Assembly (NCBI RefSeq): GCF_000019605.1
Contig: NC_010482.1
Coordinates: 690,001-722,000, forward strand
Direction of reading: 5' to 3'
DNA: 32,000 bases
DNA from: Candidatus Korarchaeum cryptofilum OPF8
Lineage (GTDB): Archaea; Korarchaeota; Korarchaeia; Korarchaeales; Korarchaeaceae
Shown one piece after another: positions 4,114-32,000 of this stretch. The notes beneath the pieces were generated by a model. The model worked only from the letters and a program-made list of their open reading frames with translations, ran no database searches and was not told the origin of the DNA. The position numbers and the translations under genes are program-made. How positions within the stretch are numbered: position 1 is the stretch's first letter; each line of letters starts with the position of its first letter.

Positions 4114-7100
4114 TCACCTCTTCATGACATAGATTCTGAATACCTTCCCCCTCAGCATGTTAGCGACTCTATGAAGTGTTGGATGAGTGGCGAGAAAGAA
4201 TATTGCCTCTGCTCCGGCCAACTTTTCCCTCATCGCTTCCCCATCTAAATGCCTAACTTCCTCCCTCTTTATATTCAAGACCACTGGCTCCATCAGGGGG
4301 AGACCGTAATTCTTCATCTTCTCTTCCAACTTGCTCAGGATCATCTTCCTGTAACCGTGGGGCACTAAGAAAGCCAGCTTCATCCCTGGGACCCCGTTTT
4401 CCACCATATAGAGTAATGCTACAAAGGATAGGAGCTCGCAAAGATATTCCTTATTTATATATGCGGCCCTATAGTGTATATAACCGTTCCTCATTAGGGG
4501 GTTGTAGTACTTCAAGAATTCCCTGTGATCCTCGATTACCTGCTCCCTCAACCCCCGGACCATGCCCCTGTAAAGCTCCTCTATTGAACTTGAGAGGTAC
4601 TCCTCTATCCTTCTCTTCGCGATAGAGTCCCTCTCCTCCCTAGATGCTTTCAGCAGGAGTGAGGAGAACTCGTTCATTAGGTAGAGGGAGAAGAGAGTGT
4701 GGAATTGGTCATCGGAGATGAAAGCAGCTACTTCCTCAATTGGAACCCTCTTTATCGAGCTCACCTTTATTGCCTGCGTGGGGACGTTCGTCACAGGGAT
4801 CCAGTTCTGCTTCCGGTGTTCACTCACTATTATATCTCCACTCTCGCTGAGATACAGATCGCCCCGGCCGACGGCCTGAGCGTCGCCCGTCAGGCCCTTA
4901 CCATTTATGGGATATAGGGGTCCTTTGAACGATCTCCTGTCAACCAGCACGAATTTCTCGCGTACTATATCGTAATTGAGAATATTTAGATTGGATAGTG
5001 TGTTCAAAGCCCTCTCAATAGCGTTCTCGAGGAATTCGGGCAGGCGGCCCTGAGACCTCAGAGAATCCATTAAATCGCTCTCATCGTACTTCCACAGGAG
5101 GAGAGGAGCTAGGAGAATCATCGGAACAGATGCCCCCTCATCCGCACGCGATATAGCAGAATAAATTTTAGTTACGAGCATTGGATCCAGCAACGTCCTC
5201 TTTATTAGTGCCAGCCTGCGCTCATAATCGTATCCCGGGGAGTAGAGCATGACAGCTCTGCAGATTTTACCGTCCCTGCCTCCCCTCCCTATCTCCTGAT
5301 AGTAATCTTCTATGCTCTCTGGCATCATGTAGTGGACGACCCACCTCACGTTGGGGATATCCACCCCCAGACCGAAGGCCTTAGTGGCCACCACTATCCT
5401 TGGCTCCTTAGCTTCCCCTCTGCTGACTCTGTAAATCCTGTTAAGGACATCTTTCTTCTCCGAATCGCTCATCTGGCCGTGAAAATAGATGACGTTTCTC
5501 CCGAGATTCTCGGAGAGGAAATCAGCTATATATGGGGCGTTCTCATGCTCCTTAGTGGACCTCACGAATCCAGTGTATATTATGCCGAGCCAGGGAGAGC
5601 TTCCTGAGAAACTATCGGCCCACCTGGATAGCTCACTTACCACATTAAGCAGCTTATATAATCTTTCTTGACCGCTGGGTGCCTCCACAACATCTATTAT
5701 TATATTATCCCTTATCGCAGGCCCCTTGAAAACCTTTACCTGCTCTGTATCTGGCTTTGATGGATCGAAGTCTGTGTTGAAATCTATTTCCTCCATATTG
5801 AACTTCTCATCCCCTGTCAGGACCTTGATCACCTCCTCCAATCCCTTTCCCGGCAGAGTCGCGGTGAAGCCAGCTAGAGGCAACCAGAGGCCATATTCCC
5901 TGCTCCTCTTGATGTACTGAGCTAGATACTCGTAGCTCGGCCTGAAAGTCCTGCCCCATTTGTAAAGCGTGTGGATCTCATCTATCACCAGGTAATTTAT
6001 GTCGGCCCTCTCGAGGCTCCTCCTGACTTCCTCCTTCTCCAGCTGCTCGGGGGTGATGTAAACTATATCGTATCCCCCTCTAGCCAGCCCCCTTATGTAC
6101 TCATCCAGCCTGTCGCGCGCCATACTCGTGATAGCGCAGGCCCTCACCCCTCTGGACAGCAGGCTGTTGAGGTGATCCTCTATAAGGGCCAGCAATGGGG
6201 AGATAACGACGGTAGTCCCTCCAATTTTCCTCCTCAGGAAGAGGGCGACCGATTGGAATATGAGGGATTTCCCGGAGCCCGTGGGCAGTATAGCTATCGA
6301 GAAAGGTCTGTCTAGCAGGAGTCCCTGATATGTATAGGGCATCAGCAACCGGGCCACCAGTCTCCTCTGATATGGCCTTAATGAGAAGCCCCAGACATCC
6401 CTAACAATCTCCTCTAGCTCTTTTATGGCTTCCTTCAGGGAGGGGAAGGTTGCGTAGGACATACTAATGGGTGGCGCCAGAGGCCTGACCTCCACTTCCT
6501 CCACGAAATCGCTCAAGTTGAGCCGCCTGATCAACTCCCTATCCGCGTTCACTATGATGCAAGTCCCTCCAGATAGACGCAGGACCTCCACTAGGGACTT
6601 CAGCATCACCTCCTCTCCCGATCTGACGAGGGTCCTGGTCGAATAGAGCACTATATTGTAGCCCATGGAAGCGAATTTGTTCACCCTCTCGAGGGTCCTG
6701 ATGAGATCCCCCGAGCGATGCACCTCCGCCCTAGCCCTCATGCGGTAAGATACTTCCCTAGAGACGATCTCTTCAGCGGAGTTGGACACGAGCACGAGGC
6801 TCCTCCCCCTCTGAATGACCGCAGCAAGCAACCCTCCGAAGAGGTTGGAGTGACGGGAGCTCTTATCGATCCCATCCTTTACCAGATAGAGAGTCCTCTT
6901 CACCTCGGGCCTCCTGTATTCCACATCGACAGCGAGATCGAAGGGTGTCTCCAGCTCCACCTTGCTGAAGGTAGCAGATAACTGCTTCAGCAGGCTCGAG
7001 TAATCCTGATAATAGGCCCTCAGGAGGTAAGCCCCTCTGAGGACTATCTTGGACTCCGCCCTCCCCCTCATCCTCCCTAGGAGATCCTTCAGGTACCTGT

Positions 7101-8331
7101 ACTCGACCACGAATCCCTCGGATGGGTCCCTCAGTTGATTGTCCCTCGTTATCCTCTCCACTACCGATGCCAGGGCCTTCTTCAGATCCTCATAAGGCAT
7201 CTCAAGTGCTCTAAGCCTCTCAGGATCCCCTCCGGCTGCGGCGAATGACTTCGCGATAGTTAAGGCGAGCCTCTGGAGGGGAGTGAGGTCCCCTAAATCG
7301 GAGGATGGATCCAAGCTCTTCGGATACCAGGCATCGGAGAAGCTCGAAGCATCTATCGTGACCACTACCTCCCCTCTCTTAGACCCCCTCACCCTGAGCT
7401 GGCGAAAATCCGTCGCAACTTCCGGTATTCTCACTTCCCTCAGACCGGAGAGCGGTTCAAAAGGCACAGCTTTTATCTCCGGGAGTATGCCCTTCCTCTT
7501 CGCTACATGGATGAGCTTCGGGAGTATCGTGAGGGATGCGTGAGCATCTTCATCCGCTCTGTGGGGCGTGTAATCCACTTTGAACAGGAAGGAGAGGCCC
7601 TCGAGTGAGTGGCTGAGGGCCTCGGGTACCGAGATCAGTGCTAATGCGTAGGTATCTATGAACCTCACATCCCCGAAATGGACTCCCCAGGATCTCAGGA
7701 CGTCGATATCGAAGGAGTAGATGTTATGGCCCACCAAGACCCTGAACCTCCTGATCAATTTCGAGAGGAAAGCCTGGGGGATGGAACCGTAAGTCTCGGA
7801 GATTTCCTCAGGCTTTATGTTGAGTCTAGCCAGCTCCTTCCAATCGCTGCTCCTCAATGCTATTAGACCTATTTCCCTCGGCTTCTTATCGTACTCTATC
7901 TCGGTCTCTATATCCAGCCCCAGGATATCGCTCTCACGGAGGAAGTATACCCTGTCGTCAGCTATCCTCAAACGCCCTATGATAGCGAGGAATTTGTTGA
8001 ACTCCCCCCTGAAGAATAGTAGATCTATGCCTGCCGATATTAATCCCCTGTCCATGAGTAGGATACTCAGCCTTGAGCCCGATAGCAACTTGAAGACTCT
8101 ACCTACGTCTTTATGCCGAATTGCATCCTCCAGCTCGTCATTGATCCTCTTCCTGTAGTAGAGGATCGATATTAGGATGAGCAGAGCAATTATGCCCAGT
8201 ATTGAGGGGCTTAGGATGCTATTCTCAATAATAGCACCCTTCGGGAGCCCCATCCCCTCCAAGTATCGGCACCGCACTGAATTACCGGAAAATAATAAAA
8301 GATTGTGTGAAGCTGCGACGGAGGAGCCCAT
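4114..8331 (-). CDS. 1405-aa fusion: N-terminal TM helix + DnaQ-like DEDDh 3'-5' exonuclease + RecQ-family DExH helicase + ~400-aa unknown C-terminal region
   Basis: TM segment 'ILGIIALLILISILYY' (~8157-8208). Exo I is 'LGLDIETE', Exo II 'VGHNIYSFDIDVL' and Exo III 'HRADEDAHAS' (~7490-7930). RecQ motifs are 'ILPTGSGKSLIFQ', 'VISPLLALIEDH', 'LVIDEIHTLYKWGRTFRPSY', 'GFTAT', 'VATKAFGLGVDIPNVRWVVHY' and 'YYQEIGRGGRDG' (~5250-6400). An alternative start is M27 at 8253. Confidence 0.9.
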   Translation of the reverse strand: MGSSVAASHNLLLFSGNSVRCRYLEGMGLPKGAIIENSILSPSILGIIALLILISILYYRKRINDELEDAIRHKDVGRVFKLLSGSRLSILLMDRGLISAGIDLLFFRGEFNKFLAIIGRLRIADDRVYFLRESDILGLDIETEIEYDKKPREIGLIALRSSDWKELARLNIKPEEISETYGSIPQAFLSKLIRRFRVLVGHNIYSFDIDVLRSWGVHFGDVRFIDTYALALISVPEALSHSLEGLSFLFKVDYTPHRADEDAHASLTILPKLIHVAKRKGILPEIKAVPFEPLSGLREVRIPEVATDFRQLRVRGSKRGEVVVTIDASSFSDAWYPKSLDPSSDLGDLTPLQRLALTIAKSFAAAGGDPERLRALEMPYEDLKKALASVVERITRDNQLRDPSEGFVVEYRYLKDLLGRMRGRAESKIVLRGAYLLRAYYQDYSSLLKQLSATFSKVELETPFDLAVDVEYRRPEVKRTLYLVKDGIDKSSRHSNLFGGLLAAVIQRGRSLVLVSNSAEEIVSREVSYRMRARAEVHRSGDLIRTLERVNKFASMGYNIVLYSTRTLVRSGEEVMLKSLVEVLRLSGGTCIIVNADRELIRRLNLSDFVEEVEVRPLAPPISMSYATFPSLKEAIKELEEIVRDVWGFSLRPYQRRLVARLLMPYTYQGLLLDRPFSIAILPTGSGKSLIFQSVALFLRRKIGGTTVVISPLLALIEDHLNSLLSRGVRACAITSMARDRLDEYIRGLARGGYDIVYITPEQLEKEEVRRSLERADINYLVIDEIHTLYKWGRTFRPSYEYLAQYIKRSREYGLWLPLAGFTATLPGKGLEEVIKVLTGDEKFNMEEIDFNTDFDPSKPDTEQVKVFKGPAIRDNIIIDVVEAPSGQERLYKLLNVVSELSRWADSFSGSSPWLGIIYTGFVRSTKEHENAPYIADFLSENLGRNVIYFHGQMSDSEKKDVLNRIYRVSRGEAKEPRIVVATKAFGLGVDIPNVRWVVHYMMPESIEDYYQEIGRGGRDGKICRAVMLYSPGYDYERRLALIKRTLLDPMLVTKIYSAISRADEGASVPMILLAPLLLWKYDESDLMDSLRSQGRLPEFLENAIERALNTLSNLNILNYDIVREKFVLVDRRSFKGPLYPINGKGLTGDAQAVGRGDLYLSESGDIIVSEHRKQNWIPVTNVPTQAIKVSSIKRVPIEEVAAFISDDQFHTLFSLYLMNEFSSLLLKASREERDSIAKRRIEEYLSSSIEELYRGMVRGLREQVIEDHREFLKYYNPLMRNGYIHYRAAYINKEYLCELLSFVALLYMVENGVPGMKLAFLVPHGYRKMILSKLEEKMKNYGLPLMEPVVLNIKREEVRHLDGEAMREKLAGAEAIFFLATHPTLHRVANMLRGKVFRIYVMKR

Positions 8332-8488: not shown

Positions 8489-8887
8489 TCAAAAGAATAA
8501 GAGAAAAACAGGGAATCCTGAGTAGGCTTTTAGGACGAGGATTCTACTCAGGATCTCAAGGTTGAGGATATGGCCAATTTCTTTTGCTGCTCTTTTTATG
8601 AGTAGAAAGTCATTATAGTATGTAATCAGCTTTTCTTTTCTGTTGACGGCTATTGATGCCACTAACAAATCAGCGAAAGCTTGTGGAGCACCCATCTTAA
8701 GTAGCACCAGCTGCAAAGTGTGGGCCATCTTGAAATCAATCCTTACTGGAAATATCACCTTTCCATAAAAATGGTTGTAGTAGACAATCCTCGGATATTC
8801 GATGAATGTAACAGCCTTTATATCCTCATCAATGGGTTTCCTTGACCTGATCCTGTCAATAGCAACGCTAGTATCGAGAATTGTCAT
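8489..8887 (-). CDS. vapC: PIN-domain toxin (VapC-like)
   Basis: The N-terminal 'MTILDTSVAI' carries the first PIN acidic residue, and 'DLLVASIAV....LITYYNDF' is a late PIN motif. An ATGA start/stop overlap joins it to the upstream small gene. The hydrophobic C-terminal tail is atypical. Confidence 0.65.
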   Translation of the reverse strand: MTILDTSVAIDRIRSRKPIDEDIKAVTFIEYPRIVYYNHFYGKVIFPVRIDFKMAHTLQLVLLKMGAPQAFADLLVASIAVNRKEKLITYYNDFLLIKRAAKEIGHILNLEILSRILVLKAYSGFPVFLLFF

Positions 8888-9132
8888 TTAATCCTCCTCT
8901 TCTCCTTCTCCCTGAGCTCCTTCACGTCATATACCTCTAAATCCTCTGTTAAATCCTCAGGTCTGATGCCAAGCTCCCTTCTGAGCTCCTCTATGCTCGC
9001 TACACCGTATAACTCCGAAACAAGCTCATTCACAGCTTTTTTAAACTCCTCCTCGGAAAGCCAGGAGGGAATTCTTATCCTGATTTCCTTTGACATCTTG
9101 GTTTTTGGCAACAGGACTTTATAAGTCTTCAT
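8884..9132 (-). CDS. vapB: small antitoxin-like protein paired with the PIN toxin (VapB-like)
   Basis: 82-aa charged ORF. Its TGA overlaps the vapC ATG (reverse strand 'aaATGA' at 8887..8884). A likelier start is 'MSKEIRIRIP' at 9096. Confidence 0.5.
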   Translation of the reverse strand: MKTYKVLLPKTKMSKEIRIRIPSWLSEEEFKKAVNELVSELYGVASIEELRRELGIRPEDLTEDLEVYDVKELREKEKRRIK

Positions 9133-18050: not shown

Positions 18051-18431
18051 ATGATTATACTAACCCATGGAAAATATAAGGAAAATGCTGGATTTATCTT
18101 CTTTGGAAAAGATAAGGAGTTAAATTTGGTGAGGGAGGGAGACAGAAGGGAGGAGGTATGCACTCCTAATTTCCTAAGTACTCTTTTAGAATGTATTTCT
18201 TTAGATTATATTTCGACCTCTAAGTTAGAAAAAATAATTGAAATAAGTGGGGAGAAAATAAAAGAAAGATCAATAAAAATAGAAAATCGAGTAAAGAAGA
18301 TACATAAAAGAGTGAAAATAAACAATAATGGGAGGATCCAGGGCTATCAGATTGATATCGCCCCTGTATGGCATAAAGGATTATCCACTAACGAGAGGGC
18401 ATGCGGGAGGTGGAAATATGGAAATATTTAA
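18051..18431 (+). CDS. hypothetical small protein, possible first gene of the AT-rich operon
   Basis: A ~126-codon open frame in ~32% GC DNA, where stops are frequent. It overlaps the next start by 14 nt. It is Lys/Glu/Ile-rich, and no motif was recognised. Confidence 0.3.
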   Translation: MIILTHGKYKENAGFIFFGKDKELNLVREGDRREEVCTPNFLSTLLECISLDYISTSKLEKIIEISGEKIKERSIKIENRVKKIHKRVKINNNGRIQGYQIDIAPVWHKGLSTNERACGRWKYGNI

Positions 18432-20520
18432 AAGAATAATAGCACTATTTAGGAAAATTTCTCGCATCTTTCAAAAGAAGGAGTTATATATAGGGGATCT
18501 ATCCAGGGAGCAAAGAAGCGAACCTTCTACTGCCGTAGAGAACATAATAGATAAGGAAGAAGCTCGGGGAGAATTGGAAAAAGAGATTGAGGGTAAGTCT
18601 ATAAGAGAGCTAGAAGAGAGAGTAGAACAGAGTATTCCTGAAGGAAGGAGAAGGAAAAAGCCTCAAAAAAAGAGAGCTCCTACTGAACAGGATATAAAGA
18701 CAAGAAGGACTGTTTATAAAGAACAGAGGGTACACGCGATAGGAAAAGAGGTGAAACTAGGCAAAAAGAGATCTACAGGGAGAGCTAAGAGGCCAAAGTC
18801 ATTAGAGGCAGTTCCAAAGGAAAGAAGAGAGGAAAAATCGGCTCAATCCTCTATAAGAGTGAGAGCGCCATTTGTTGAAATTGATCTTGACAGGGCTAAG
18901 GTTTTTCTCGTGATCCCAAAACAAAGCTTAACGGTAGAAAATTCCTCTAAAAAACAATTGAGTTATAGGGTATCCTTAGATAACGAAGTAGAAAGACCGC
19001 TTCCAGTTGGAATTACCGGTAATGAAGAATATCCAGAAACAGAAGAAGAAAGGATTGAAATAGAAAAACCTATAAAAAATTTTAAGGTTGCCTATCCAGA
19101 AGAGCTTGAAGGTAGGAATTATACTTACGAACATAGGGATGATTCTATTTATACTTTCATCGCTGTTGGAGATGGTCTAGGCAGAATGCACTATCTATAC
19201 GAAGATGGGAACATCAATCCACTTCCTCAAAGAGAAATATGGGTCCTTCTTGAGGAGGATTTTGAGCCCGAGATCGAACCGATTTTAGAGGAGGATAGAT
19301 GGATCTGGGAAAAATATAGGCCATTATATATCGATTTGAGAGATAAAAGTGAATTAGTTATAATAAATAGAAAGTTAAATAAAAGAGAAGCTATACCTTG
19401 TAAATCTACTTTTTCCATTGAAGGCGAAGAGATTATTTATGATGATTTCAGCGATCAATCTCCTATTTTTACGGGTAACAGTATTAAAATAAAAGCTCCA
19501 ACAATAAATGAAGAAGGATGGGTCGTTTATGTTCAAAACAAACAAGATGGTTATAAGATTGTTTCCGATAATTGGTTAGGGAAGGATCCCCTTGAGCTGA
19601 GATTTGACCGTGATCTACCCTGTGAATGCGGGGAATTCCAGGTAGATATCTGTGGGCAAGATGGGAAATCTGTTAACACACTGTTCTTCAGGTATATTCC
19701 ATCTTTGCGATTAAATTATTCGAGGGAACTCATCATCCCAGATCCCAAGAAGGGCCATAAAACAGAGAGAGTTGAGATTTCACTTCCATATGCAGAATAT
19801 TTTGAAATAGAAACTGAAGAGCAAATAAAACCCACCCCGAAAGGATATGAGATCATTTTACCACCGAAAAGAGATGTCTTTAGGTTCTCCATCTTCAAGA
19901 AGAATAAGCCGGAAACTAAAGTAAGCTTCAGAGTAACGGTTCCAAGATTAAAATGGAAGACCTCAAGACATATAGATTGGAGGGATACTCCGCTACGTTT
20001 AGAGAGGGAAGAACTGCTCACTAGCGAAGAACTCTACCTCTATATCAATACGAATAGTTTTCCTAACTATAATATTTCGGCGATACTCGAGGCAAATAAC
20101 CAGAAACTGCAGGAATCAAAGTTTGTTAGAAAGAGAAATATTTACAGCATCTTATTAAACCAATTTTATGATACTATTAAGGAAAGCAAAGGTAGGATTG
20201 TGCTTAAGATTAAAATCCTTAAAAACGAAAGGATCATAGGTGAAAATATTCCCGTTCTATATCTCTCTGAAAAGATAACGCTTAGACCTATCCCGCGAGG
20301 ATCGAGAAAGAGTATGAGACCGATTGTAAGGTGCGGCATGGGCATGAGGGAAGGAAGGGGCTTTAGTAAAGAAGAAATAATCCAGGCTGGGATTAGAATA
20401 GAAGATGCTAAACGATTGAACATTCCGTATGATAAGCATAGGAAGTCAGCACATCCCAAAAATATCGAGATTTTAAGATCGTTAGTTGAAGGTGATAATT
20501 ATGCCGATAGATCCGATTAA
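18418..20520 (+). CDS. ~700-aa orphan protein: basic/acidic disordered N-terminus, beta-rich middle, C-terminal ribosomal-protein-L13e-like module
   Basis: ATG 18418 is preceded by 'GGAGGTGG' 5 nt upstream. The 2.1-kb frame is uninterrupted in AT-rich DNA. The first ~150 aa are K/R/E-rich. The C-terminus reads 'RPIVRCGMGMREGRGFSKEEIIQAGIRIEDAKRLNIPYDKHRKSAHPKNIEILRSL'. The stop lies 20 nt inside the downstream helicase gene. Confidence 0.8.
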   Translation: MEIFKRIIALFRKISRIFQKKELYIGDLSREQRSEPSTAVENIIDKEEARGELEKEIEGKSIRELEERVEQSIPEGRRRKKPQKKRAPTEQDIKTRRTVYKEQRVHAIGKEVKLGKKRSTGRAKRPKSLEAVPKERREEKSAQSSIRVRAPFVEIDLDRAKVFLVIPKQSLTVENSSKKQLSYRVSLDNEVERPLPVGITGNEEYPETEEERIEIEKPIKNFKVAYPEELEGRNYTYEHRDDSIYTFIAVGDGLGRMHYLYEDGNINPLPQREIWVLLEEDFEPEIEPILEEDRWIWEKYRPLYIDLRDKSELVIINRKLNKREAIPCKSTFSIEGEEIIYDDFSDQSPIFTGNSIKIKAPTINEEGWVVYVQNKQDGYKIVSDNWLGKDPLELRFDRDLPCECGEFQVDICGQDGKSVNTLFFRYIPSLRLNYSRELIIPDPKKGHKTERVEISLPYAEYFEIETEEQIKPTPKGYEIILPPKRDVFRFSIFKKNKPETKVSFRVTVPRLKWKTSRHIDWRDTPLRLEREELLTSEELYLYINTNSFPNYNISAILEANNQKLQESKFVRKRNIYSILLNQFYDTIKESKGRIVLKIKILKNERIIGENIPVLYLSEKITLRPIPRGSRKSMRPIVRCGMGMREGRGFSKEEIIQAGIRIEDAKRLNIPYDKHRKSAHPKNIEILRSLVEGDNYADRSD
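20314..20490 (+). other. L13e-like domain (C-terminal ~60 aa of the 18418..20520 product)
   Basis: It matches the conserved core of eukaryotic/archaeal L13e as I recall it: human RPL13 '..[62 protein letters not shown]'. The shared elements are RPIVRC, GRGFS-EE, AGI, I--D-(R/H)R and N---L. Confidence 0.7.
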
Positions 20521-23500
20521 GGTTACACAGAATATTCGCGAGAGCTATATCCGATATTTGACGAGTACTTTCCACCTTAGAGACGAACAATTTCGAAGTA
20601 AATTCCGGCAAGAAGTTGAGGCTTTTTCCTTTATAAAGGGCCCCATTTTAGAGGCAACACCACCTTTCGAAAGAGGATGTCATCTTAAGGATTTAATTAG
20701 AGAAGGGTTGCTCAGCGATAAACTAGAGAGTTTTATTTTTGATGCGATGGATTATTTGCGCAATAATCCACTATACTTACACCAGGAGAAAGCTATTAGA
20801 AAGATAATTAAAGGTAGAAATGTGCTCATTGCCTCCGGTACAAGTAGTGGGAAGACGGAGTGCTTCCTGATACCAATTTATAATCATCTTTTAAGAGAAT
20901 ATGAGGAAGGAAGGCTCACACCAGGAGTAAGGGCTCTTTTGCTCTATCCTATGAATGCATTAGCTAACGATCAGCTGAGAAAGCTGAGAAAAATAGCGAG
21001 AGTGATGGAAGAGAAAATTCCCGAAGTTAAAATAACCTTCGGTAGATATGTCGGCGACACTCCTGAAGCTAAGGGAGATGGATTAGAGAAGTTCAAATTG
21101 ATGAATCCCAAGGAGAAGCCCGTAGAGAGCGAACTTCTTTCGAGAGAAGAGATGAGAGAAAATCCACCTCATATACTAATAACGAATTACGCAATGCTCG
21201 AATATTTACTTTTGAGACCAAAAGACTCGCCTTTCTTTGATGGAGAATACGCGAGAAACTGGAAATTCTTAGTTCTCGATGAAGCCCATATCTATAGCGG
21301 GGCAACGGGAATTGAAATGGCTATGCTCATCCGTCGCTTGAAAGATAGAGTCTGTAAAAATATGGAAGGTGACTTGCAGTGCATCGCGGCAAGCGCAACT
21401 CTTGTTAGGGGGGAGGAGGATTTTGAAAAAGTAGCAGACTTTGCAACTAAGCTTTTTGGAGAAAGATTTGAATGGGATCCAGAGGATAGTGAAAGACAGG
21501 ACATAATTAAGGGAGAAAGAATCAAAATAGAGGGCTCGAAGGCTGAATTTAAGGCATCACTCAATCTATACTTAGAACTAGAAGATAGAATAATTCAAGA
21601 TACTTCCTCTCCTACTCTGGAACAACTGTACAAGACTTGTGAAGAAAATGGTATTCCTAAAAGTATTTTGGATAATTCGAGGGATATTTGCGACAATAAT
21701 CCAAAGAGATTCCTTTACGAAGTTCTTTCAAAAGATGAGATGGCAATAAAACTGAAGTCTCTGCTAGAAGGAGGAGCGAAGGGGATTGATGAATGCGCTA
21801 AATATCTTTTAGAAAAAGATGAGCCCTCAAAGGAAGAATATAGCCAGATAATTAGCCTTATTAATGTATTAGTGTGGGCACGCCCAGATGAGGATTCCTT
21901 ACCTCTTTTACCGGCTCGTTACCATCTATTTGTTCGCGCACCGGAGGGGGTCTTTATATCCTTTTACCCTGAACCGAGGATATTCCTAGAGAGGAGGGAG
22001 CTGACGGATGATGGGTATCCCGTCTTTGAACTCGCTTCTTGCCGACGCTGTGGGCAGGAATATTTAGTCGGAGAGGTCGTAGAGGGTAAATTAAAGCATT
22101 CTTTTGCTGAGGTAGATACTCAGAGGAAGAATAGGTATTTCATGTTATGGGGGGAAGATATTAAACTAAAGGAAGACGAAGATCAGGAAGTAGCAGTTCC
22201 TGAAGAAATTGCTAAAGAAGGAGATGTATGGAAGCTGTGCGTAAAGTGTGGGTCGATATGGAAAGATAAACCTACCTGTAATTGTGACCATGAGAGAGAT
22301 TCCGTAAGGACATTGATCGAAGTAACTCCCAAGGACACAGTTCTTAATAAATGCTACCTATGCGGATTACGCTCCATAGATATTGTTCGCGAATTCATTT
22401 TCCAGAGAGATGCTCCTGCAGCAGTATTAACTACAGCGTTGTACCAAAATCTTCCGAGGGATCACGCAAGGGAGAGAAAAATACTCATCTTCTCGGATAG
22501 TAGACAAGATGCCGCATTTTTTGCTCCTTATCTGGAGTTCACTTATAAAAGGATCTTATTCAGGCGTTTGATAGTTGAAGCCATAAAAGGAAATCGATTA
22601 GAAGATTACAGGCTTGAATCCTTATGTGAGGATGTTCTGCGGCTCGGTGAAAAAAGTAAAGTTTTTGATCCAGCGAAGGATGAGAAAGAAAGGAAAAAAG
22701 AGGTCTGGAAATGGATAATTCAAGAGTTCTGCGGAATCTGGGATAGGAGAAATTCTCTAGAAGGTGTTGGGCTGGTATCATTTATCCTGATATTTCCTGA
22801 AAACTGGAGGCCCATCAAAGAGCTACAAGAACCGCCCTGGAATCTTACAGAGGACGAAGCGAGAGCATTATATCAAACATTGCTCAACTCCATGCGCTTC
22901 AATATGGCTATTACTTTTCCTGATGGACTGAATTCCCAAGATGAGTTCTTTAGCCCAAGGAATAGAGAGTACAAATTCAGAGGGGAAGGCTCCGATACCG
23001 GAAGAGGGATATACTCCTTCATACCATCTCAAGGCAGGACTAATGCAAGACTCGAATATTTGGAAAAGTTATATAAGAAGATTACGGGAAAGGAAGATGA
23101 AAACAATGAATGTAGGGAGCTATTAGGAAAAATATGGGAGGATTTGAGAGATAACTGGGTTGATAGGGGTATACAGAGATTTAGCAACTCGAGAGATGGT
23201 GTCCTTTACAAGCTTGATTATAGATATTGGAGAATAATCCAGCCGAACACCTCTTGGTTCATTTGCGATCGCTGCGGAGTAATTGTACCCTCAAGCGTGC
23301 GGGGAGTCTGCCCGACATTCGGCTGTAATGGAAATCTCATTCCAATAGATAACCAAAAATTTGAAGATCTTGAAAGAAACCATTACCGCTATCTATATAC
23401 TCACTTGGAACCCATAGTAATGGCTCCCCATGAGCATACAGCACAGCTCACCACCGATCATGCCTCAAACATTCAGCAAAAGTTTATAAGAGGGGATATC

Positions 23501-25333
23501 AATATCTTGAGTTGCTCAACTACATTCGAGCTAGGAGTGGATATTGGAGAATTAGAAGCTATCTTTTTACGTAATGTCCCACCAGAACCCTCAAACTATA
23601 TTCAGCGCGCAGGAAGAGCAGGAAGAAGACTCGGTACCATAGGATTTATTCTGACTTTCGCCCAACTTCGTTCTCATGACCTTGCATACTTTAAAGAGCC
23701 AGAAAAAATGATTGAGGGAAGAATAAAGCCACCTATCATTGAACTCAAGAATGAGAAGATAATTTCCCGTCATCTCTACTCCATTGCAATTGCGGATTTC
23801 TTCAGAAAATTTAGCGATTATTTCGGGGATGCGGACTCGTTTTTCAGATTTGAAGAAGGTATTTCAGGCACAGAGAGAATAAAGGAGTATCTTCTCACAA
23901 AGCCCGAATCCATCCTGAAATCATTAAAAAGAGTCATACCTGAGGACTTGCAGAAAGTTTTTGGAGTTGATGATTGGAAATGGGTTGATGGTCTTGTGGG
24001 TAAAGAAGGTGTTCTTACAAAAGCAGACGAGAAAATAAGGGACGAATTTACCAGGCTTAAGGAATTCTATAGATTAAAGGAGGAAGAATGGAATAGTGCC
24101 CAAGATCAGCAAAAAAGAAACAAAATACATGCAGATATGAACTGGGCATACAAAAGAAAGGAGACTATTAAGAGAAAACAGCTCATAGATTTCTTAGCAT
24201 CTCATGCAGTTATTCCCAAGTATGGTTTTCCAGTGGATGTTGTTGAATTGGACATCCTATCACACCAGGACGCTGCTAAAAATATCCAGCTAGAAAGAGA
24301 CTTGAGCATAGCTATTTCAGAATTCGCGCCAGGGAGTCAGGTAGTTGCAAATGGGTATATTTGGGAGAGTGAAGGGTTGAAAGTCGTGAGAAATAGGACA
24401 TGGCCGATTTACTGGTATGCTATCTGCAGTGAATGCAATAAATTTTTCATAAAAAGTGGAACAATAGAAGAAAACCCACCCTCCTTCTCATGCGATGTTC
24501 ATGGACCCATCTCACGGGGGGATATACATAGATTTGTCACGCCAATATTTGGCTTTGTGACCTCTAAGGATTTTGAGCCAAAGAAACCGGGTGAATCGAG
24601 ACCAAAGCATGAGTTTACCACAAGACCATACTTCTTCAGTTATGAGAAACCAGAGGAAAGAATATTCACTATTGGCAGATTTAAGATTAAATGTAAGTAC
24701 TCTTCCGATGGAGAATTAGCCGTTATCTGTAAGGGGAAGAAGGGTGGATTTTGGATATGTTTTGATTGCGGTGCGGCTTTCCCGGAGAGAAAAAGAAAGC
24801 ATAAAACGCCTTACGGGATGGACTGCACATCACCTTTGAAAGGCCCGTTTCACCTTGGACATACTTTTAAGACTGACGTGCTTTCTATTTCATTTGAAGA
24901 GCCAAATATAAATGAAAGTTATATTAGAGAGATATTTAGATCAAAGTCTATTAAGATAAATAATAAGTTTGTAGAAAGCTTCTGGCTATCCCTCTTATAT
25001 GCAGTACTAGAGGGCGCAAGCCAGGCCCTCGGGATAAAAAGAGAGGATCTGAATGGATGCCTCCATTCATCTGAGGGCAGAATTATGCTAATATTGTTTG
25101 ATAATGTTCCTGGTGGAGCTGGGCATGTAAAACGAATAATGAGCGAGAGAAACTTGTATGAGGTTCTCAAGGGTGCCCTAGCCCGAGTCAAGAATTGCGC
25201 ATGTGGGCTTGAGACCAGTTGTTATGGATGCCTCCGAAGTTATGAGAATCAATTCTGTCATGACCTACTGAAGAGAGGCGTTGTCTGGGAGTTTCTTGAA
25301 AGAAATCTGGAGGGGGATCAGTTACGTAGATAG
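20501..25333 (+). CDS. ~1610-aa DEAH-box SF2 helicase with multiple zinc ribbons and C-terminal DUF1998 (MrfA-type Zn-binding) domain; DrmA+DrmB / DruE-like
   Basis: ATG 20501 follows a 'GGTGA' SD. Motif I is 'ASGTSSGKTE' (~20831), Ia 'YPMNALANDQ', II 'VLDEAH' (~21275), III 'ASATL', IV-like 'IFSDSRQDAAF' (~22490), 'HTAQL..STTFELGVDIGELEAIF' and VI 'QRAGRAGRR'. CxxC pairs lie at ~22039, 22237, 22354, 23266/23311, 24424 and 24760. The C-terminus 'LFDNVPGGAGH...CACGLETSCYGCLRSYENQFCHDLLKRG' is the DUF1998 signature. Confidence 0.9.
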   Translation: MPIDPIKVTQNIRESYIRYLTSTFHLRDEQFRSKFRQEVEAFSFIKGPILEATPPFERGCHLKDLIREGLLSDKLESFIFDAMDYLRNNPLYLHQEKAIRKIIKGRNVLIASGTSSGKTECFLIPIYNHLLREYEEGRLTPGVRALLLYPMNALANDQLRKLRKIARVMEEKIPEVKITFGRYVGDTPEAKGDGLEKFKLMNPKEKPVESELLSREEMRENPPHILITNYAMLEYLLLRPKDSPFFDGEYARNWKFLVLDEAHIYSGATGIEMAMLIRRLKDRVCKNMEGDLQCIAASATLVRGEEDFEKVADFATKLFGERFEWDPEDSERQDIIKGERIKIEGSKAEFKASLNLYLELEDRIIQDTSSPTLEQLYKTCEENGIPKSILDNSRDICDNNPKRFLYEVLSKDEMAIKLKSLLEGGAKGIDECAKYLLEKDEPSKEEYSQIISLINVLVWARPDEDSLPLLPARYHLFVRAPEGVFISFYPEPRIFLERRELTDDGYPVFELASCRRCGQEYLVGEVVEGKLKHSFAEVDTQRKNRYFMLWGEDIKLKEDEDQEVAVPEEIAKEGDVWKLCVKCGSIWKDKPTCNCDHERDSVRTLIEVTPKDTVLNKCYLCGLRSIDIVREFIFQRDAPAAVLTTALYQNLPRDHARERKILIFSDSRQDAAFFAPYLEFTYKRILFRRLIVEAIKGNRLEDYRLESLCEDVLRLGEKSKVFDPAKDEKERKKEVWKWIIQEFCGIWDRRNSLEGVGLVSFILIFPENWRPIKELQEPPWNLTEDEARALYQTLLNSMRFNMAITFPDGLNSQDEFFSPRNREYKFRGEGSDTGRGIYSFIPSQGRTNARLEYLEKLYKKITGKEDENNECRELLGKIWEDLRDNWVDRGIQRFSNSRDGVLYKLDYRYWRIIQPNTSWFICDRCGVIVPSSVRGVCPTFGCNGNLIPIDNQKFEDLERNHYRYLYTHLEPIVMAPHEHTAQLTTDHASNIQQKFIRGDINILSCSTTFELGVDIGELEAIFLRNVPPEPSNYIQRAGRAGRRLGTIGFILTFAQLRSHDLAYFKEPEKMIEGRIKPPIIELKNEKIISRHLYSIAIADFFRKFSDYFGDADSFFRFEEGISGTERIKEYLLTKPESILKSLKRVIPEDLQKVFGVDDWKWVDGLVGKEGVLTKADEKIRDEFTRLKEFYRLKEEEWNSAQDQQKRNKIHADMNWAYKRKETIKRKQLIDFLASHAVIPKYGFPVDVVELDILSHQDAAKNIQLERDLSIAISEFAPGSQVVANGYIWESEGLKVVRNRTWPIYWYAICSECNKFFIKSGTIEENPPSFSCDVHGPISRGDIHRFVTPIFGFVTSKDFEPKKPGESRPKHEFTTRPYFFSYEKPEERIFTIGRFKIKCKYSSDGELAVICKGKKGGFWICFDCGAAFPERKRKHKTPYGMDCTSPLKGPFHLGHTFKTDVLSISFEEPNINESYIREIFRSKSIKINNKFVESFWLSLLYAVLEGASQALGIKREDLNGCLHSSEGRIMLILFDNVPGGAGHVKRIMSERNLYEVLKGALARVKNCACGLETSCYGCLRSYENQFCHDLLKRGVVWEFLERNLEGDQLRR

Positions 25334-25492: not shown

Positions 25493-26740
25493 TCAAGTTG
25501 ATCCGTAAGAGAGGCTAGCGAGCCTCTTCAGTAAATCCGGAGACTTCGTGTGTATGGGCTTCACATCCTTGGGCCTCACTACGCTCATTATACGCGTCAG
25601 CTGATAGGGATAGTAGTGGCCCGATGCCCTCATCCTGTAGTGCTGCACCCCCATGGCGGAGAGCCAGTTAGCTATCACATCGTATTCCAACGCCTCCTCT
25701 ACCTCAGGCTCCGGCTCAGAGAGTACCGCCACGGGGCTCCTCATAGCAGGGCGGAAGCTCGGATCCCTCAGTAAATCTACTATCTCCCTGTGGGAGGTAA
25801 GTATGAAAGAGTTCCCTCCTATCTCCTCAAGGGAAACCTTCTCCCTCATCGTCGGATATCTCACGAAATCCTCAACAAGATTTATCTCAACGGGGGGCTC
25901 TGGTATCCTCTCCAGGAGCTTAGCTATTTGAGCCGATGCAACGTAGCAATCGAATCCGAGCTCCTTCGCTATCTCGAGAATGAGGTAAGCGTACTCGAAG
26001 TCGAGACCATGGAGTGTGAATAGCATGGGAGCTTGAGAGGATTTTTGGGAGATAGCGATCCTCCTTATCATATTTGCGACATCATCCGGTGAGATAGGTG
26101 TCCTATTCGACCCTACATTCGTCCCCTCTATTATGAGAGTGTCCACTCTCACATCCGGATTCTCCCCCAAGTAAGTGAGGAGATCCTCGCCTATTAGCTC
26201 GAGGAACCTCTCCTCCCCGAGGAAGCCGTCGACTCTGAAGTCCCCTGTGTAAAGAATCGTCCCCTCTCTGCCGAAGTACAGGAATGCGTATGCTGGATAG
26301 GCGCTGTGGGATACTGGAAGTGGAATCACACCGTTTTCATCCTCTTCTAAAGGTTTTATCTCCCTTATCTCCAGGAAATATCTCCCTGCAACTAGCTGGA
26401 GCCATGAGGAGGAGTTCTCCCATCTCTCCTTCATATCCTCGTATACCGAGAGGCTCGGCAGGTATACGCGAGTCTCCGAGGGTATGTTGTGCAGGAGCCC
26501 CAGATGATCGAGGTGCATGTGCGATATGTATATGCCGCTGGCGTCCATGTACCATTCCTGCTTCGGGATGACCCCGAGTCTCCTGAGCTCAGCTATCCCC
26601 TGAGGCGTTACCTGCATAGAGTAATACCTGCTCATTATATCGAATCTGATCCCCTGATCGAATACAAGAGTTTTATCTCCATCCCTTATCCTTACAAAAT
26701 TCCCACCTATGCTGTTCTCCCCGGACAGTATCTCTATCAA
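25493..26740 (-). CDS. metallo-beta-lactamase-fold nuclease, RNase J-like (MBL/beta-CASP)
   Basis: The 'HMHLDHLG' (HxHxDH) motif is present. The RNase J-like N-terminus is 'IEILSGENSIGGNFVRIRDGDKTLVFDQG'. Also present are 'TLIIEGTNVG' and 'RASGHYYP'. The preferred start is TTG 26740, which overlaps the SNF2 stop and has GGAGG 7 nt upstream. The ORF-track ATG at 26836 adds a non-homologous 32-aa extension lying inside the SNF2 gene. Confidence 0.75.
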   Translation of the reverse strand: MIEILSGENSIGGNFVRIRDGDKTLVFDQGIRFDIMSRYYSMQVTPQGIAELRRLGVIPKQEWYMDASGIYISHMHLDHLGLLHNIPSETRVYLPSLSVYEDMKERWENSSSWLQLVAGRYFLEIREIKPLEEDENGVIPLPVSHSAYPAYAFLYFGREGTILYTGDFRVDGFLGEERFLELIGEDLLTYLGENPDVRVDTLIIEGTNVGSNRTPISPDDVANMIRRIAISQKSSQAPMLFTLHGLDFEYAYLILEIAKELGFDCYVASAQIAKLLERIPEPPVEINLVEDFVRYPTMREKVSLEEIGGNSFILTSHREIVDLLRDPSFRPAMRSPVAVLSEPEPEVEEALEYDVIANWLSAMGVQHYRMRASGHYYPYQLTRIMSVVRPKDVKPIHTKSPDLLKRLASLSYGST

Positions 26741-29673: not shown

Positions 29674-29683
29674 GAATTTGAGG

Positions 29684-29698
29684 AAAAATAACTTAAAA
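29684..29698 (-). promoter_or_regulatory. candidate TATA box for the SNF2 gene (short or no leader)
   Basis: The reverse strand reads 'TTTTAAGTTATTTTT', centred ~27 nt upstream of ATG 29664, in the 118-bp gap after the upstream gene. Confidence 0.3.
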
Positions 29699-29791
29699 GT
29701 TTAGCTGTCCATGGGAAGTGTTGCTATCCTCATTACCAGCGATGAGCTCTCCTCTGGTAGTTAAAGGGAATCGCACATTTTCTAGATGTTT

Positions 29792-32000
29792 TCAGCCTTT
29801 ATGACCCTTCCTCCTCACTAGGAGTTTGAAGATAGCTCTTCCATTCAGTTGAGATAGCACCGCTATTTTCTGGTCATCCAACACCACATGATTCTCGAGC
29901 TCTATGCTTCCATTTAAATGCGTCCTCAATCCGAGCTGGCTCGCTTGCCTTGATATTTCATCTAACTTCTGGACTAGGAACCTCGCTATATCTATGCTCA
30001 CCCCCTCCATTGAGAAGCGTATATTCCCCCCGAACTCAGCATCGATATTCACTTTAGCCTTCATGCCCAGCTTGCTCACATTTTCTATCGCTATTTTCAG
30101 CGAAATTAGATCGGAACTACTTATTGATAGGAGCTTCTCTCCAGAGATGCTGCTATCTATCTTATCTACGTCTCTCTCCTCCTCAGGGCTCAAGATGACT
30201 ATGGAGACGGATTCCTCCTTGAGCAGCCCGTCCGAGCTCACTGCCCTTATCTTCAGGGGAAACCTCCCCACCCTCCTGGGCGTTACCTCCCATGAGACCT
30301 TCATCGGAGGCCTGCCTTTCCCCTGACTGAGCTCCCCTTCCTCTACCTGGAGCTTTATCTCCTCCGAATAATCTTCTACGGGTTCTATGGATATCTCGAA
30401 TACTGCCTTCTCTCCCTGGTTCAATTCCACATGCTTCGGTTTCACATCGAGAACGAAGCCTCTCTTCAGCTCCTCCTCCCTCTTCTCTATCACCCCGGCC
30501 CTCAAGACCTCTTCCCATCCTTCCTGCTTCACCAAGTCCTCGAGAGGTATTCTCTCCCCTCCAATCTCTACTTCGTACCAGATCCTCTTCGTTACTCCGT
30601 TCTTCCGCACACCGCTTTTGGAGAGGAGCTCCTCCTTCATCTGCTCCGCAGCCCTCTTCCAGGGGAGTATCACTGCTGTATCCCTCAATCCCTTCGGCCT
30701 CTCAGCGCCTGAGGATCCGATTCTCTTCCAGTAGAGTCCCCCCTCTATCTTAATCCCTATATCCAGTTTATCCAGGCCCTCGAGGAGGGCTTCCTCAACC
30801 GCTTTTTGCGTAGTGAAGGGAGCCGCTGTATTCGTGTAGAATACATCCATGATTTCCTTGAACTCGAACTGCCTGTCTCCATTCACTAAATCCCATCCGA
30901 GATTGTCCTTAAGAAAATCGGAGATATCCTTGAATTCCAGTTTTGTCCTGAGCTTCGGTCCAGTTCTCGGGTCTTTGAGCGCCGCTTCCACCTGCGATAT
31001 GAGGTAGGAGGAAGGGCTCGCTTCCACGATCTTTATATCGTTCCCCTCCTTCCCCTTGTATGGGTAAGCGACCTTCGTTAGGAGGGAGAGTATCTGCTGC
31101 ATCAAGTATCCTTTGTTTTCATTAATGTAACTCTCCAACTTATTACTCTGGATCTTTATTATGTCCTTATCCGTGTAGTACTCGCTCAGGTTTTCCTTTA
31201 TTTCTTCAGCTGCTTCTATCTTCGCTACATATCTGAGCTCATCCTCTAAGTTCGATTTCGATGGGAATACTACTGCTATCGTATTTGCATATGTTCTCTT
31301 TCCTCCTCCGGGTTCTCTCAGTATTATATTCCTCAGCTCCTCCTCACTAACATCCGGTTTTACCATTACGACTAACCTCAACGATTTCTCGTCCCTCAGT
31401 TCTCTCCCTATGTCATCTCCATATCCCAGTGTAATCACGTTATTACTGTCAAATACCTCGCCTGATGGCTTCTCTCCCTTCTTGCGGGTTCCGGATGTGT
31501 CTCCTTTAACATGACTTTTTACATAATTGACCAGCTTCCTGTGGAGGTCGAGGATCGCGCCTCTCAGCATCTCATCAGCTCTCCTCTCTACGTACTCCAA
31601 GACCGATGGATAGGGCGTGAACCAGAACCTGTTCTCCTCCCCGGTGAAGTGGGGGAGTTTGACCAGCATCTCCTCTACCGTGGCCTCTATATCTGGTGGC
31701 TGAAGATCGCTTGATGAAAAGCTCTCGGGATCGTAGGTCATCAAAGCTATGTCCTTCAGATCTGGGAATACTTTTAGAGGCTCTTTGAATGTTTCATAGG
31801 TGTAGGTCTTCAATAATACGACTGTAGCTATCTTGAGGGCGAGCGCTGGCTTTGAGCAGTTCGCGATAGAGCCGAGGCTTCCATCCTCGGATACTATGTC
31901 CCTGCTCGCGACATCCCTGAAATTCTTGTAGCTCTCTGTGAGGACCAGGTTCCTTATATCCTTATCCCTCAGGTCTATGTGCCACGGCATTATGAACTCC
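29792..32000 (-). CDS. large protein (>=732 aa; frame still open at window edge), tentatively the non-ATPase part of a DUF499/BrxC-like protein plus an Ig-like beta-sandwich region
   Basis: The 2.2-kb frame is uninterrupted, and the three codons upstream of ATG 31990 (EFI) contain no stop. 'RFWFTPYPSVLEYVERRA' and 'GGGKRTYANTIAVVFPSK...LRYVAKIEAAEEI' resemble conserved DUF499 segments as I remember them. No Walker A is present in the visible part. Residues ~520-620 ('FVLDVKPKHVELNQGEKAVFEISIEP...FPLKIRAVS') look like a beta-sandwich. Confidence 0.5.
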   Translation of the reverse strand, partial: EFIMPWHIDLRDKDIRNLVLTESYKNFRDVASRDIVSEDGSLGSIANCSKPALALKIATVVLLKTYTYETFKEPLKVFPDLKDIALMTYDPESFSSSDLQPPDIEATVEEMLVKLPHFTGEENRFWFTPYPSVLEYVERRADEMLRGAILDLHRKLVNYVKSHVKGDTSGTRKKGEKPSGEVFDSNNVITLGYGDDIGRELRDEKSLRLVVMVKPDVSEEELRNIILREPGGGKRTYANTIAVVFPSKSNLEDELRYVAKIEAAEEIKENLSEYYTDKDIIKIQSNKLESYINENKGYLMQQILSLLTKVAYPYKGKEGNDIKIVEASPSSYLISQVEAALKDPRTGPKLRTKLEFKDISDFLKDNLGWDLVNGDRQFEFKEIMDVFYTNTAAPFTTQKAVEEALLEGLDKLDIGIKIEGGLYWKRIGSSGAERPKGLRDTAVILPWKRAAEQMKEELLSKSGVRKNGVTKRIWYEVEIGGERIPLEDLVKQEGWEEVLRAGVIEKREEELKRGFVLDVKPKHVELNQGEKAVFEISIEPVEDYSEEIKLQVEEGELSQGKGRPPMKVSWEVTPRRVGRFPLKIRAVSSDGLLKEESVSIVILSPEEERDVDKIDSSISGEKLLSISSSDLISLKIAIENVSKLGMKAKVNIDAEFGGNIRFSMEGVSIDIARFLVQKLDEISRQASQLGLRTHLNGSIELENHVVLDDQKIAVLSQLNGRAIFKLLVRRKGHKG

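Follow-up and report, generated by a model that had tools for sequence, protein, structure and literature searches.

A predicted membrane-anchored DEDDh exonuclease and RecQ-type helicase fusion protein in Korarchaeia and related Thermoproteota

Introduction

Fusions of nucleases with helicases are known, and so are RecQ-like helicases and DEDDh exonucleases. In the Werner syndrome protein (WRN), an N-terminal 3′-5′ exonuclease of the DnaQ superfamily and a RecQ-type helicase core share one chain, which also carries Zn-binding, RQC and HRDC domains, and the exonuclease is of the RNase-D/Klenow-like DEDDy type. Here we describe a gene of the hot-spring korarchaeon Candidatus Korarchaeum cryptofilum OPF8 whose product has the same order of an exonuclease and a RecQ-type core, and which lies on the reverse strand of a 32,000 nucleotide window (the whole stretch of DNA that was analysed, positions 690,001 to 722,000 of contig NC_010482.1). 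What appears to be new in this protein, judging from its sequence and from structural models, is a conserved membrane anchor, the pairing of a DEDDh exonuclease with a RecQ-type helicase in archaea, and two RecA-like modules that lack motifs.

Other described systems come close to it in single traits. TREX1 is a eukaryotic DEDDh exonuclease held in the endoplasmic reticulum by a single C-terminal transmembrane (TM) anchor. The bacterial nuclease SNIPE is membrane-bound and cuts phage DNA during injection (PMC13190303). With these two the korarchaeal protein may share a concept, that of a membrane-held nuclease for which location and not sequence selects the DNA, but this is a functional analogy only; SNIPE has no helicase, and no sequence relationship to it was seen, nor was one sought. 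Finally, in the Exo-DinG proteins of Bacillota, such as Staphylococcus aureus DinG, an N-terminal DEDDh exonuclease is fused to a superfamily 2 (SF2) helicase of the XPD/DinG type, with 5′-3′ polarity (PMC3270479, PMC12345164). The exonuclease of the korarchaeal protein is of the same subfamily, whereas its helicase is RecQ-type, for which family membership suggests 3′-5′ polarity.

Results and Discussion

Architecture and integrity of the gene

The gene was first noticed in a sequence-only reading of this DNA, which described the open reading frame (ORF) exactly as we find it. Its features are as follows.

4114..8331, minus strand: full ORF, 1405 amino acids plus stop, in a single uninterrupted frame
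4114..8253, minus strand: probable real coding sequence, starting at Met27 (M27)
8155..8217, minus strand: N-terminal transmembrane anchor helix, residues 39-59, predicted from hydropathy
7930..8154, minus strand: juxtamembrane region, residues 60-134, with conserved motifs KD-V and LDLLFF-x-x-F
7492..7929, minus strand: predicted DnaQ-like DEDDh 3′-5′ exonuclease domain, residues 135-280, from Pfam RNase_T and hhalign
6412..7491, minus strand: spacer module, residues 281-640 (360 amino acids), from AlphaFold2 and Foldseek
5227..6411, minus strand: RecQ-type SF2 helicase core, residues 641-1035, from Pfam, PDB and motif conservation
4117..5226, minus strand: C-terminal region, residues 1036-1405 (370 amino acids), from AlphaFold2 and Foldseek
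4117..4482, minus strand: terminal RecA/KaiC-like alpha/beta domain, residues ~1284-1405, from the model

We consider it quite likely that the product is a membrane-tethered protein facing the cytoplasm, in which a 3′-5′ exonuclease and a RecQ-type 3′-5′ helicase act without other partners. We infer the activities and their polarity from family membership, the topology from the positive-inside rule, and the role, discussed below, as well.

Such an architecture could in principle be an artefact, either an erroneous gene fusion produced by assembly or sequencing or a wrong start that creates a spurious TM helix, and the sequence-only reading had itself named both as ways in which it might fail. 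The first 26 codons of the ORF are probably untranslated, and the database entry of one homologue (P0030) lacks the helix. However, that entry is a short gene call, and a longer call from the same cluster (P0183) regains the helix; conserved sequence starts immediately past the helix, and the same co-linear gene is a single ORF both at 99% identity in independent assemblies (L001, L009-L011) and in more than 15 diverged homologues. Since both catalytic sites are kept in 18 of 18 members, and the anchor in every complete Thermoproteota member, we regard an artefact as extremely improbable, and a mis-joined or mis-started gene was ruled out by these comparative data.

The true start is probably M27 or TTG-24 and not M1. 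Read from the sequence, the ATG of M27 lies at 8253-8251 with GGAGG directly 5′ of it at 8260-8256, and in alignment the N-termini of homologues begin 0-12 residues ahead of the TM helix. Each of the three candidates (M1, TTG-24 and M27) lies 5′ of the hydrophobic segment, and the next in-frame Met, M93, is already preceded by sequence that is conserved family-wide, so that the anchor survives any correction of the start. Upstream of M27 we also read a short AT-rich element.

8289..8300, minus strand: AT-rich box TTTTATTATTTT, 36-47 nucleotides 5′ of the M27 ATG

This box is a possible candidate for an archaeal TATA-like element, and is conserved only in the 99%-identical contig of Candidatus Methanodesulfokora washburnensis MDKW.

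The membrane anchor

The hydrophobic segment ILSPSILGIIALLILISIL (residues 39-57) averages 2.72 on the Kyte-Doolittle scale over 19 residues, and no other segment of the protein rises above 1.85. Every complete Thermoproteota member has one equivalent N-terminal 19-residue stretch with a mean of 2.3-3.3, and outside the anchor no segment exceeds 1.85 in an alignment of 11 sequences (A2); the N-terminal hydrophobic helix proposed from the letters alone is real. Across homologues the sequence identity of the segment is 0-48% and its hydrophobicity is conserved, which is the pattern expected for a lipid-embedded anchor. The helix is flanked by 0-1 Lys or Arg on its N side and by 2-6 within 15 residues on its C side in every complete Thermoproteota member, and because of this bias the positive-inside rule predicts a short N-terminus outside and the catalytic bulk in the cytoplasm; for an enzyme that depends on ATP, no other orientation would make sense. 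One hydrophobic stretch of at least about 19 residues, conserved as a property and with a positive-inside bias, points to a one-pass signal anchor. A distant relative from an Archaeoglobales metagenome-assembled genome (MAG), P0040, has no such helix. Staphylococcus aureus DinG is not known to have a membrane anchor either, and WRN has neither a TM helix nor a pseudo-helicase spacer, whereas the korarchaeal protein is predicted to have both.

The juxtamembrane region that follows had no Pfam or PDB match. It contains four invariant residues, F106, F111, F114 and D125 (alignment A1), and from its sequence we take it to be a small helical domain.

The exonuclease domain

The three DnaQ-type Exo motifs and the DEDDh histidine reported earlier are all present, as Exo I LDIETE (139-144), Exo II GHNIYSFD (201-208) and Exo III HRADEDA (257-263), and none of the catalytic residues D140, E142, D208, H257 and D262 is lost in any of the 18 members, which range down to 30% identity. 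Pfam RNase_T (PF00929) matched the window protein with 27.9 bits against a gathering cutoff of 24, and was found in 8 of 11 members at E <= 0.01; the DEDDy-type family PF01612 matched neither the window protein nor any of the 11 members. The H-x4-D spacing in Exo III is a mark of the DEDDh type. When a profile of the N-terminal half was aligned by hhalign with P0042, a protein of the Exo-DinG type, 134 columns spanning all three Exo motifs were matched (probability 97.7%, E 1.7e-12), and weak NCBIfam matches in this region were to DinG (PRK08074, residues 198-275) and to PolC exonuclease regions. Because of that alignment and these matches we assign the predicted nuclease to the RNase_T/epsilon/DinG-associated DEDDh type. 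No PDB sequence match to the exonuclease was obtained, either with the single sequence or with the profile of the N-terminal half (A5).

This assignment bears on the proposal that the architecture is WRN-like. The order, an exonuclease followed by a RecQ-type core in one chain, does hold, but a relationship does not: the nuclease falls in PF00929 and not PF01612, the Zn-binding, RQC and HRDC domains of WRN were not detected, and the PDB search matched the full-length WRN chain (9hzg_E) in its helicase part only. Since a DEDDy exonuclease in WRN corresponds to a DEDDh one here, and only the WRN helicase matches, we read the layout as convergent and the korarchaeal fusion as independent of WRN.

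The helicase core

The core carries motifs 0, I (PTGSGKS, 683-689), Ia, II (LVIDEIH, 781-787, a DEIH form), III (TAT), V and VI (QEIGRGGRDG, 1012-1021), and between motifs II and III an aromatic-rich loop, KWGRTFRPSY (791-800), with the consensus xWGhxFRPxY. Each motif quoted in the sequence-only reading was recovered in its place (FRPSY at 796-800), and its view that the RecQ-type core is complete was borne out: all 18 members have the helicase motifs, which vary only conservatively (DEAH/DEVH or GAGKS, for example), and all have the W, F, R, P and Y of the loop. Pfam matched DEAD, Helicase_C and ResIII to the core. In the PDB the best match was E. coli RecQ (1oyw, E 1e-36), with which the protein shares motifs 0-VI and the aromatic-rich coupling loop, followed by RECQ1, RECQ5 and the WRN helicase domain (E 4e-29), and RNA helicases reached only ~1e-10. 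By its sequence, including the loop, the core is specifically RecQ-type.

Canonical membership in the RecQ family is another matter. The top NCBIfam matches were RecQ models, below their subfamily and equivalog cutoffs (TIGR00614, 173 against 219.8 bits; TIGR01389, 192 against 640), and the protein has ~1000 residues more than bacterial RecQ. RecQ_Zn_bind (PF16124), RQC (PF09382) and HRDC (PF00570) had no sequence match in any of 11 members, in agreement with the earlier description of the C-terminal region, and no conserved Cys column was seen past motif VI, downstream of residue 1024, in the 18 members.

These matches also bear on a role in RNA decay or processing, in which a membrane-anchored exoribonuclease and helicase would follow the logic of bacterial degradosomes (RNase Y with CshA). 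The matching Pfam family is named RNase_T, some members of the DEDDh superfamily are RNases (RNase T and oligoribonuclease, for instance), and the RecA2 half of the core has weak NCBIfam matches to DEAD-box RNA helicases. Yet the best helicase matches are by far DNA enzymes, RecQ and WRN, and the nearest relatives of the exonuclease are the DNA exonucleases associated with DinG and PolC, and we hold an RNA role to be highly unlikely.

Spacer and C-terminal modules

Between exonuclease and core, the sequence-only reading had placed a linker of ~370 residues of unknown nature, and it had called for structural searches with this linker and with the C-terminal region; when run with Foldseek, these gave matches to RecA-like or helicase-core folds in both. 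The linker does lack a sequence match, in the PDB (profile A3) as in Pfam, but it is not featureless, since it models as two alpha/beta domains (AlphaFold2 with a 7-sequence alignment; pLDDT 83.5, pTM 0.81) in which strands and helices alternate throughout. Its weak Foldseek matches were to DEAD-box cores (eIF4AIII, E 1.7e-3, TM-score 0.37), E. coli DinG (6fwr, 4.5e-3), RecA and KaiC, and those that covered the full length of the model were two-domain helicase cores. No Walker A or B motif is found in it; its beta-loop-helix with G-x-D-K-S-S-R-H is by its sequence not a conserved P-loop, since several members have other residues in place of the Lys and Ser. From the model, we take the spacer for two RecA domains of a degenerate, helicase-like kind, without ATPase motifs.

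The C-terminal region (AlphaFold2; pLDDT 89.8, pTM 0.83) likewise had no sequence match in the PDB (profile A4) or Pfam. In the model, a helical segment ending in a helix and then strands is followed by a beta-rich segment, a helical stretch and the terminal alpha/beta domain; a helix and then a long beta strand at residues ~1099-1130 would allow a winged helix, and none was reported by Foldseek. About 140 columns matched RadA, KaiC and SLFN (Schlafen) helicase domains (E ~1e-2, probability 0.95-1.0), and from secondary structure we assigned these to the terminal domain of the model. In the distant relative P0040, the terminal domain has an intact Walker A motif, GLTGSGKT, and a Walker B-like ILDDAD, which hints that in the family this domain is a decayed NTPase; the hhalign comparison with P0040 was not significant, and the placement by MAFFT of a motif-Ia-like strand of P0040 over the VPYGY strand of the family is suggestive only.

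Three uncharacterised metagenomic proteins of 1700-1925 residues (P0015, P0016 and P0020) share with the family the order of a DEDDh exonuclease, a two-RecA helicase module and a RecQ-like core, and their helicase cores match that of the window protein at E 1e-22 to 5e-29. They differ in having an intact DinG helicase as their middle module, and P0015 and P0016 keep RecQ_Zn_bind. Their order, with an exonuclease followed by an intact DinG helicase and a RecQ-like core, would make a natural ancestor-like layout for the family, which we offer as a hypothesis. A derivation of the spacer from a decayed DinG found no support in hhalign of the N-terminal half against P0015 and P0016, which aligned the exonuclease only, and what links spacer and DinG is the weak resemblance in fold. 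The triple fusion of these proteins seems worth study on its own account.

Distribution of the family

When each prokaryotic species was represented by one genome, a scan found the same gene, with 99% identity, in Candidatus Methanodesulfokora washburnensis MDKW, also of the Korarchaeia. The MDKW assembly has a further copy, with 74% identity, on a different contig (L002, NZ_RCOS01000112.1, 7893..12026) beside three glycosyltransferase genes. MAGs labelled Thermoproteota, Crenarchaeota or Desulfurococcales contain co-linear homologues with 31-41% identity. A k-mer protein search gave seven full-length relatives, and a metagenome scan ~20 further family loci. An exhaustive HMMER search with a profile that spanned anchor, exonuclease and spacer, the N-terminal half of the protein, against 1.84 billion cluster representatives gave 8 clusters at E <= 1e-30, together with a few fragments and two distant relatives, P0036 and P0040. 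The remaining ~800 matches cover the region of Exo motifs II-III only, and many among those listed are 700-950 residues long; of two that were checked, P0042 has a helicase domain of the DinG type at its C-terminus, and in P0038 no helicase domain was seen. Altogether, co-linear homologues (30-75% identity) are found only in Korarchaeia and other Thermoproteota, in ~13 clusters among the 1.84 billion representatives. The archaeal context claimed earlier is thus upheld, and the taxonomic survey that had been called for shows the family to be narrow and not widespread.

By domain, identity to the window protein is 43-87% in the helicase core, 27-81% in the exonuclease and 14-70% in the spacer and C-terminus. 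In databases the members are named 'DEAD/DEAH box helicase', 'RecQ' or 'ATP-dependent DNA helicase RecQ', or 'hypothetical protein' only, and our literature searches found no description of the family; the fusion is not an already characterised one. A 1455-residue candidate (L008) was rejected, since it shares the helicase core only.

Some members depart from the full-length, single-copy state. One 'Desulfurococcales' MAG has two copies that are 84% identical (L006 and L007), the latter broken by a frame break. A shorter relative (L023, 10109..13087), found beside aconitase and other metabolic genes, is a 992-codon ORF that matches family residues ~38-1106 and lacks ~270 C-terminal residues; homology reaches 5′ of its first start codon, and it may be a truncated or decaying copy. 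The gene of P0040 (L053, 8001..12242) has as neighbours an IS240 transposase, a MoxR ATPase and two HEPN-nucleotidyltransferase pairs.

Genomic neighbourhoods and possible roles

We compared 14 neighbourhood sets, by all-against-all BLAST of ORFs for part of the loci and by domain annotation for the rest, and they can be grouped as follows.

L005: defence-like, with a GajA/OLD-like ATPase immediately upstream
L017, L049, L050: defence-like, with Eco57I-type methylase, PLD-SNF2 helicase and EVE protein
L046: toxin-antitoxin and restriction, with PIN/VapB/MazE and NmeDI_C (NmeDI)
L003: insertion sequence (IS) and toxin-antitoxin, with IS1595 and two PIN genes
L053, L054: IS and toxin-antitoxin around the distant relative P0040, with IS240 transposase and HEPN-NTase pairs
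L020, L051, L052: DNA repair, with convergent rad50-mre11-herA-nurA
L002, L015, L021, L023, L047, L048: metabolic or cell-surface, with glycosyltransferases, surface proteins, aconitase and hydrogenase maturation (L047)
L006, L024: uninformative, with ORFs without Pfam match and a HAD/PNKP-like phosphatase

Neither method revealed a conserved neighbour gene or operon partner across the 14 sets, and the protein therefore works without a dedicated partner: it is a lineage-restricted, stand-alone protein of Korarchaeia and related Thermoproteota. Genes for defence, toxin-antitoxin or IS elements lie within ~10-12 kb in five or six of the 14 sets, namely at L005, L017/L049, L046, L003 and L053 and, with a DruE-like gene at a distance of 12 kb, in the window itself. 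The genomic context does not decide the biological role.

As our best complete statement, put forward tentatively, the enzyme described above would act on incoming DNA at the membrane. The single N-terminal signal-anchor helix would tether the ~150-kDa protein to the inner face of the membrane, where the RecQ-type motor would load on single-stranded or 3′-tailed DNA and move 3′-5′ with ATP, and the DEDDh domain would trim nucleotides off the 3′ ends of the DNA under unwinding. The motif-less RecA-like modules of the spacer and C-terminus would serve in DNA binding or as scaffolds and not as motors. For an enzyme confined to the membrane, the substrate would most likely be DNA with free ends at that site, that is entering viral, plasmid or transforming DNA, and the location would help to spare the chromosome. 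We favour this role because the strictly conserved anchor is the distinguishing feature of the family, because confinement plausibly keeps a processive nuclease-helicase off the chromosome, because of the defence, toxin-antitoxin and IS genes near some members, because diverged paralogues occur in one genome, and because SNIPE offers a precedent (PMC13190303). In its strongest form, this reading would make the protein an archaeal immune effector of one chain, for which position is the only mark of foreign DNA: a RecQ-type motor and a proofreading-type exonuclease, fixed to the inner side of the membrane, would unwind and digest viral or plasmid DNA during entry, as a counterpart of SNIPE built from unrelated parts. 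We hold this stronger version to be decidedly unlikely.

Several observations weigh against a role in handling incoming DNA. The TM prediction was made by Kyte-Doolittle hydropathy only. No relatives were found on IMG/VR viral contigs, PLSDB plasmids or GenBank phage records, and the G+C content of the gene matches its surroundings. The neighbourhoods are heterogeneous; several are plainly metabolic (L047, L048 and L023) and one lies beside rad50-mre11-herA-nurA. PIN toxin-antitoxin genes are very common in thermophilic archaea, so that their presence is weak evidence. PADLOC gave no full-length match to a defence system, its best matches being to DpdF of the Dpd DNA-modification system (215.8 bits) and PsyrT of PsyrTA (187.7 bits), both on the generic helicase core only. 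The NCBIfam model of DpdF (NF041063) scored 156.9 bits against a cutoff of 550, no dpd genes or PsyrA-like partner were found near the window gene, and we know of no exonuclease or anchor in DpdF or PsyrT.

The main rival is genome maintenance, in which the protein would be a functional analogue of WRN or Exo-DinG that works on stalled forks, recombination intermediates or chromosomal DNA ends, and in which the anchor merely localises the enzyme or limits its dosage near a nucleoid close to the membrane. We find it somewhat unlikely. In the P0029/P0177 lineage (L051, 362..14609; L052; L020), the helicase gene lies between a HATPase_c_3-SACS-NOV_C protein and a convergent rad50-mre11-herA-nurA end-resection operon, an adjacency seen in three independent assemblies; but it is convergent and not part of the operon, and limited to one lineage. 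The co-linear architecture is kept at 30-45% identity over several lineages of Thermoproteota, and the host-like G+C, the several neighbourhoods of core metabolism and the absence from the viral and plasmid collections searched would fit a maintenance gene, yet there are very few sequence clusters, and the presence of duplicated and diverged copies within a single genome is more in keeping with an accessory gene. To our knowledge canonical RecQ is missing from most archaea, and a RecQ-like activity could fill this gap; on the other hand, we know of no membrane-anchored helicase-nuclease of recombination or repair that would serve as a precedent.

The anchored motor could also be one of DNA uptake or exchange, where the helicase would pull DNA through a membrane channel and the exonuclease would trim or degrade one strand, comparable in role to ComFA with a nuclease in the transformation of bacteria or to the crenarchaeal Ced import system. 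A predicted anchor, an ATP-driven translocase and a 3′-5′ nuclease in one chain would suit such a motor, and the homologous-recombination operon beside the gene in one lineage would fit a use of imported DNA for repair. However, the 14 sets show no conserved neighbour that encodes a channel, a pilus or a Ced/Com-like component, a single TM helix cannot form a pore alone, and we know of no report of natural competence for these lineages; we consider this role very unlikely. DNA uptake and RNA processing are minor rivals to the handling of incoming DNA.

Other genes in the window

No tRNA was found within the window. Downstream of the fusion gene are genes for a dimethylargininase (DDAH) and a NosD-like beta-helix protein, and small ORFs are among its neighbours. 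Directly upstream, at 8489..9132 on the minus strand, overlapping ORFs of 82 and then 132 amino acids had no Pfam or PADLOC match; the 132-residue product begins MTILDTSVAID, and from this PIN-like ILDTSV N-terminus the two may be a VapBC-like pair. A 134-residue fragment at 9951..10355 (minus strand) corresponds to the N-terminus of the alpha subunit of indolepyruvate ferredoxin oxidoreductase (595-residue model). In the MDKW contig (L001) the ORF with the same segment has 265 residues, and over ~2 kb, at ~10400..12800, only short partial ORF matches to that contig were seen. The fragment looks like a decayed gene, possibly with an indel between the near-identical genomes.

On the plus strand, a pair of small genes at 12890..13769 (105 and 123 amino acids) has no family match. 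The pair recurs, again adjacent, at 18249..19021 of L005, with 43-48% identity and near the helicase homologue of a different MAG, and may be a small mobile two-gene module. Further along, 18328..25333 (plus strand) is a block of low G+C, 0.37-0.42 against ~0.47-0.55 elsewhere, with a gene for a 1615-residue helicase that has DEAD and MrfA Zn-binding (DUF1998) domains and matches DruE of Druantia with 626 bits, 12 kb from the fusion gene. It is preceded and overlapped by a 730-codon ORF with only a short, marginal Pfam match (Ribosomal_L13e, 27.3 bits). The block is probably a horizontally acquired Druantia-like defence module. At 25493..31990 (minus strand) three genes on the same strand encode a metallo-beta-lactamase-fold protein (447 residues), an SNF2 helicase (978 residues) with a C-terminal NOV_C/DUF3883 domain, which is DrmD-like (215 bits), and a DUF499 protein (732 residues, cut by the end of the window). 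The SNF2 and DUF499 genes, like the DruE-like one, belong to the low-G+C stretch from ~18 kb onward. At L017, another SNF2 helicase that begins with a PLD domain is encoded at a distance of 4 kb from the family gene, and gave a cross-locus BLAST match to the SNF2 gene of the window.

Conclusions

The family is real, uncharacterised, rare and experimentally tractable, and no surprising mechanism has been demonstrated for it. It places a RecQ-type core of the Korarchaeia in an unusual package, apparently anchored, fused to an exonuclease of the epsilon/DinG type and flanked by two RecA-like modules that appear to be dead, and as a small thermophilic family it is attractive for structural and biochemical work. 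If the predicted activities are real, this would be, as far as we could find, the first membrane-tethered helicase-exonuclease of its type and a clear case of convergence with the layout of the Werner syndrome protein, and it would give a poorly studied class of archaea a candidate for the location-based handling of incoming DNA or for repair close to the membrane.

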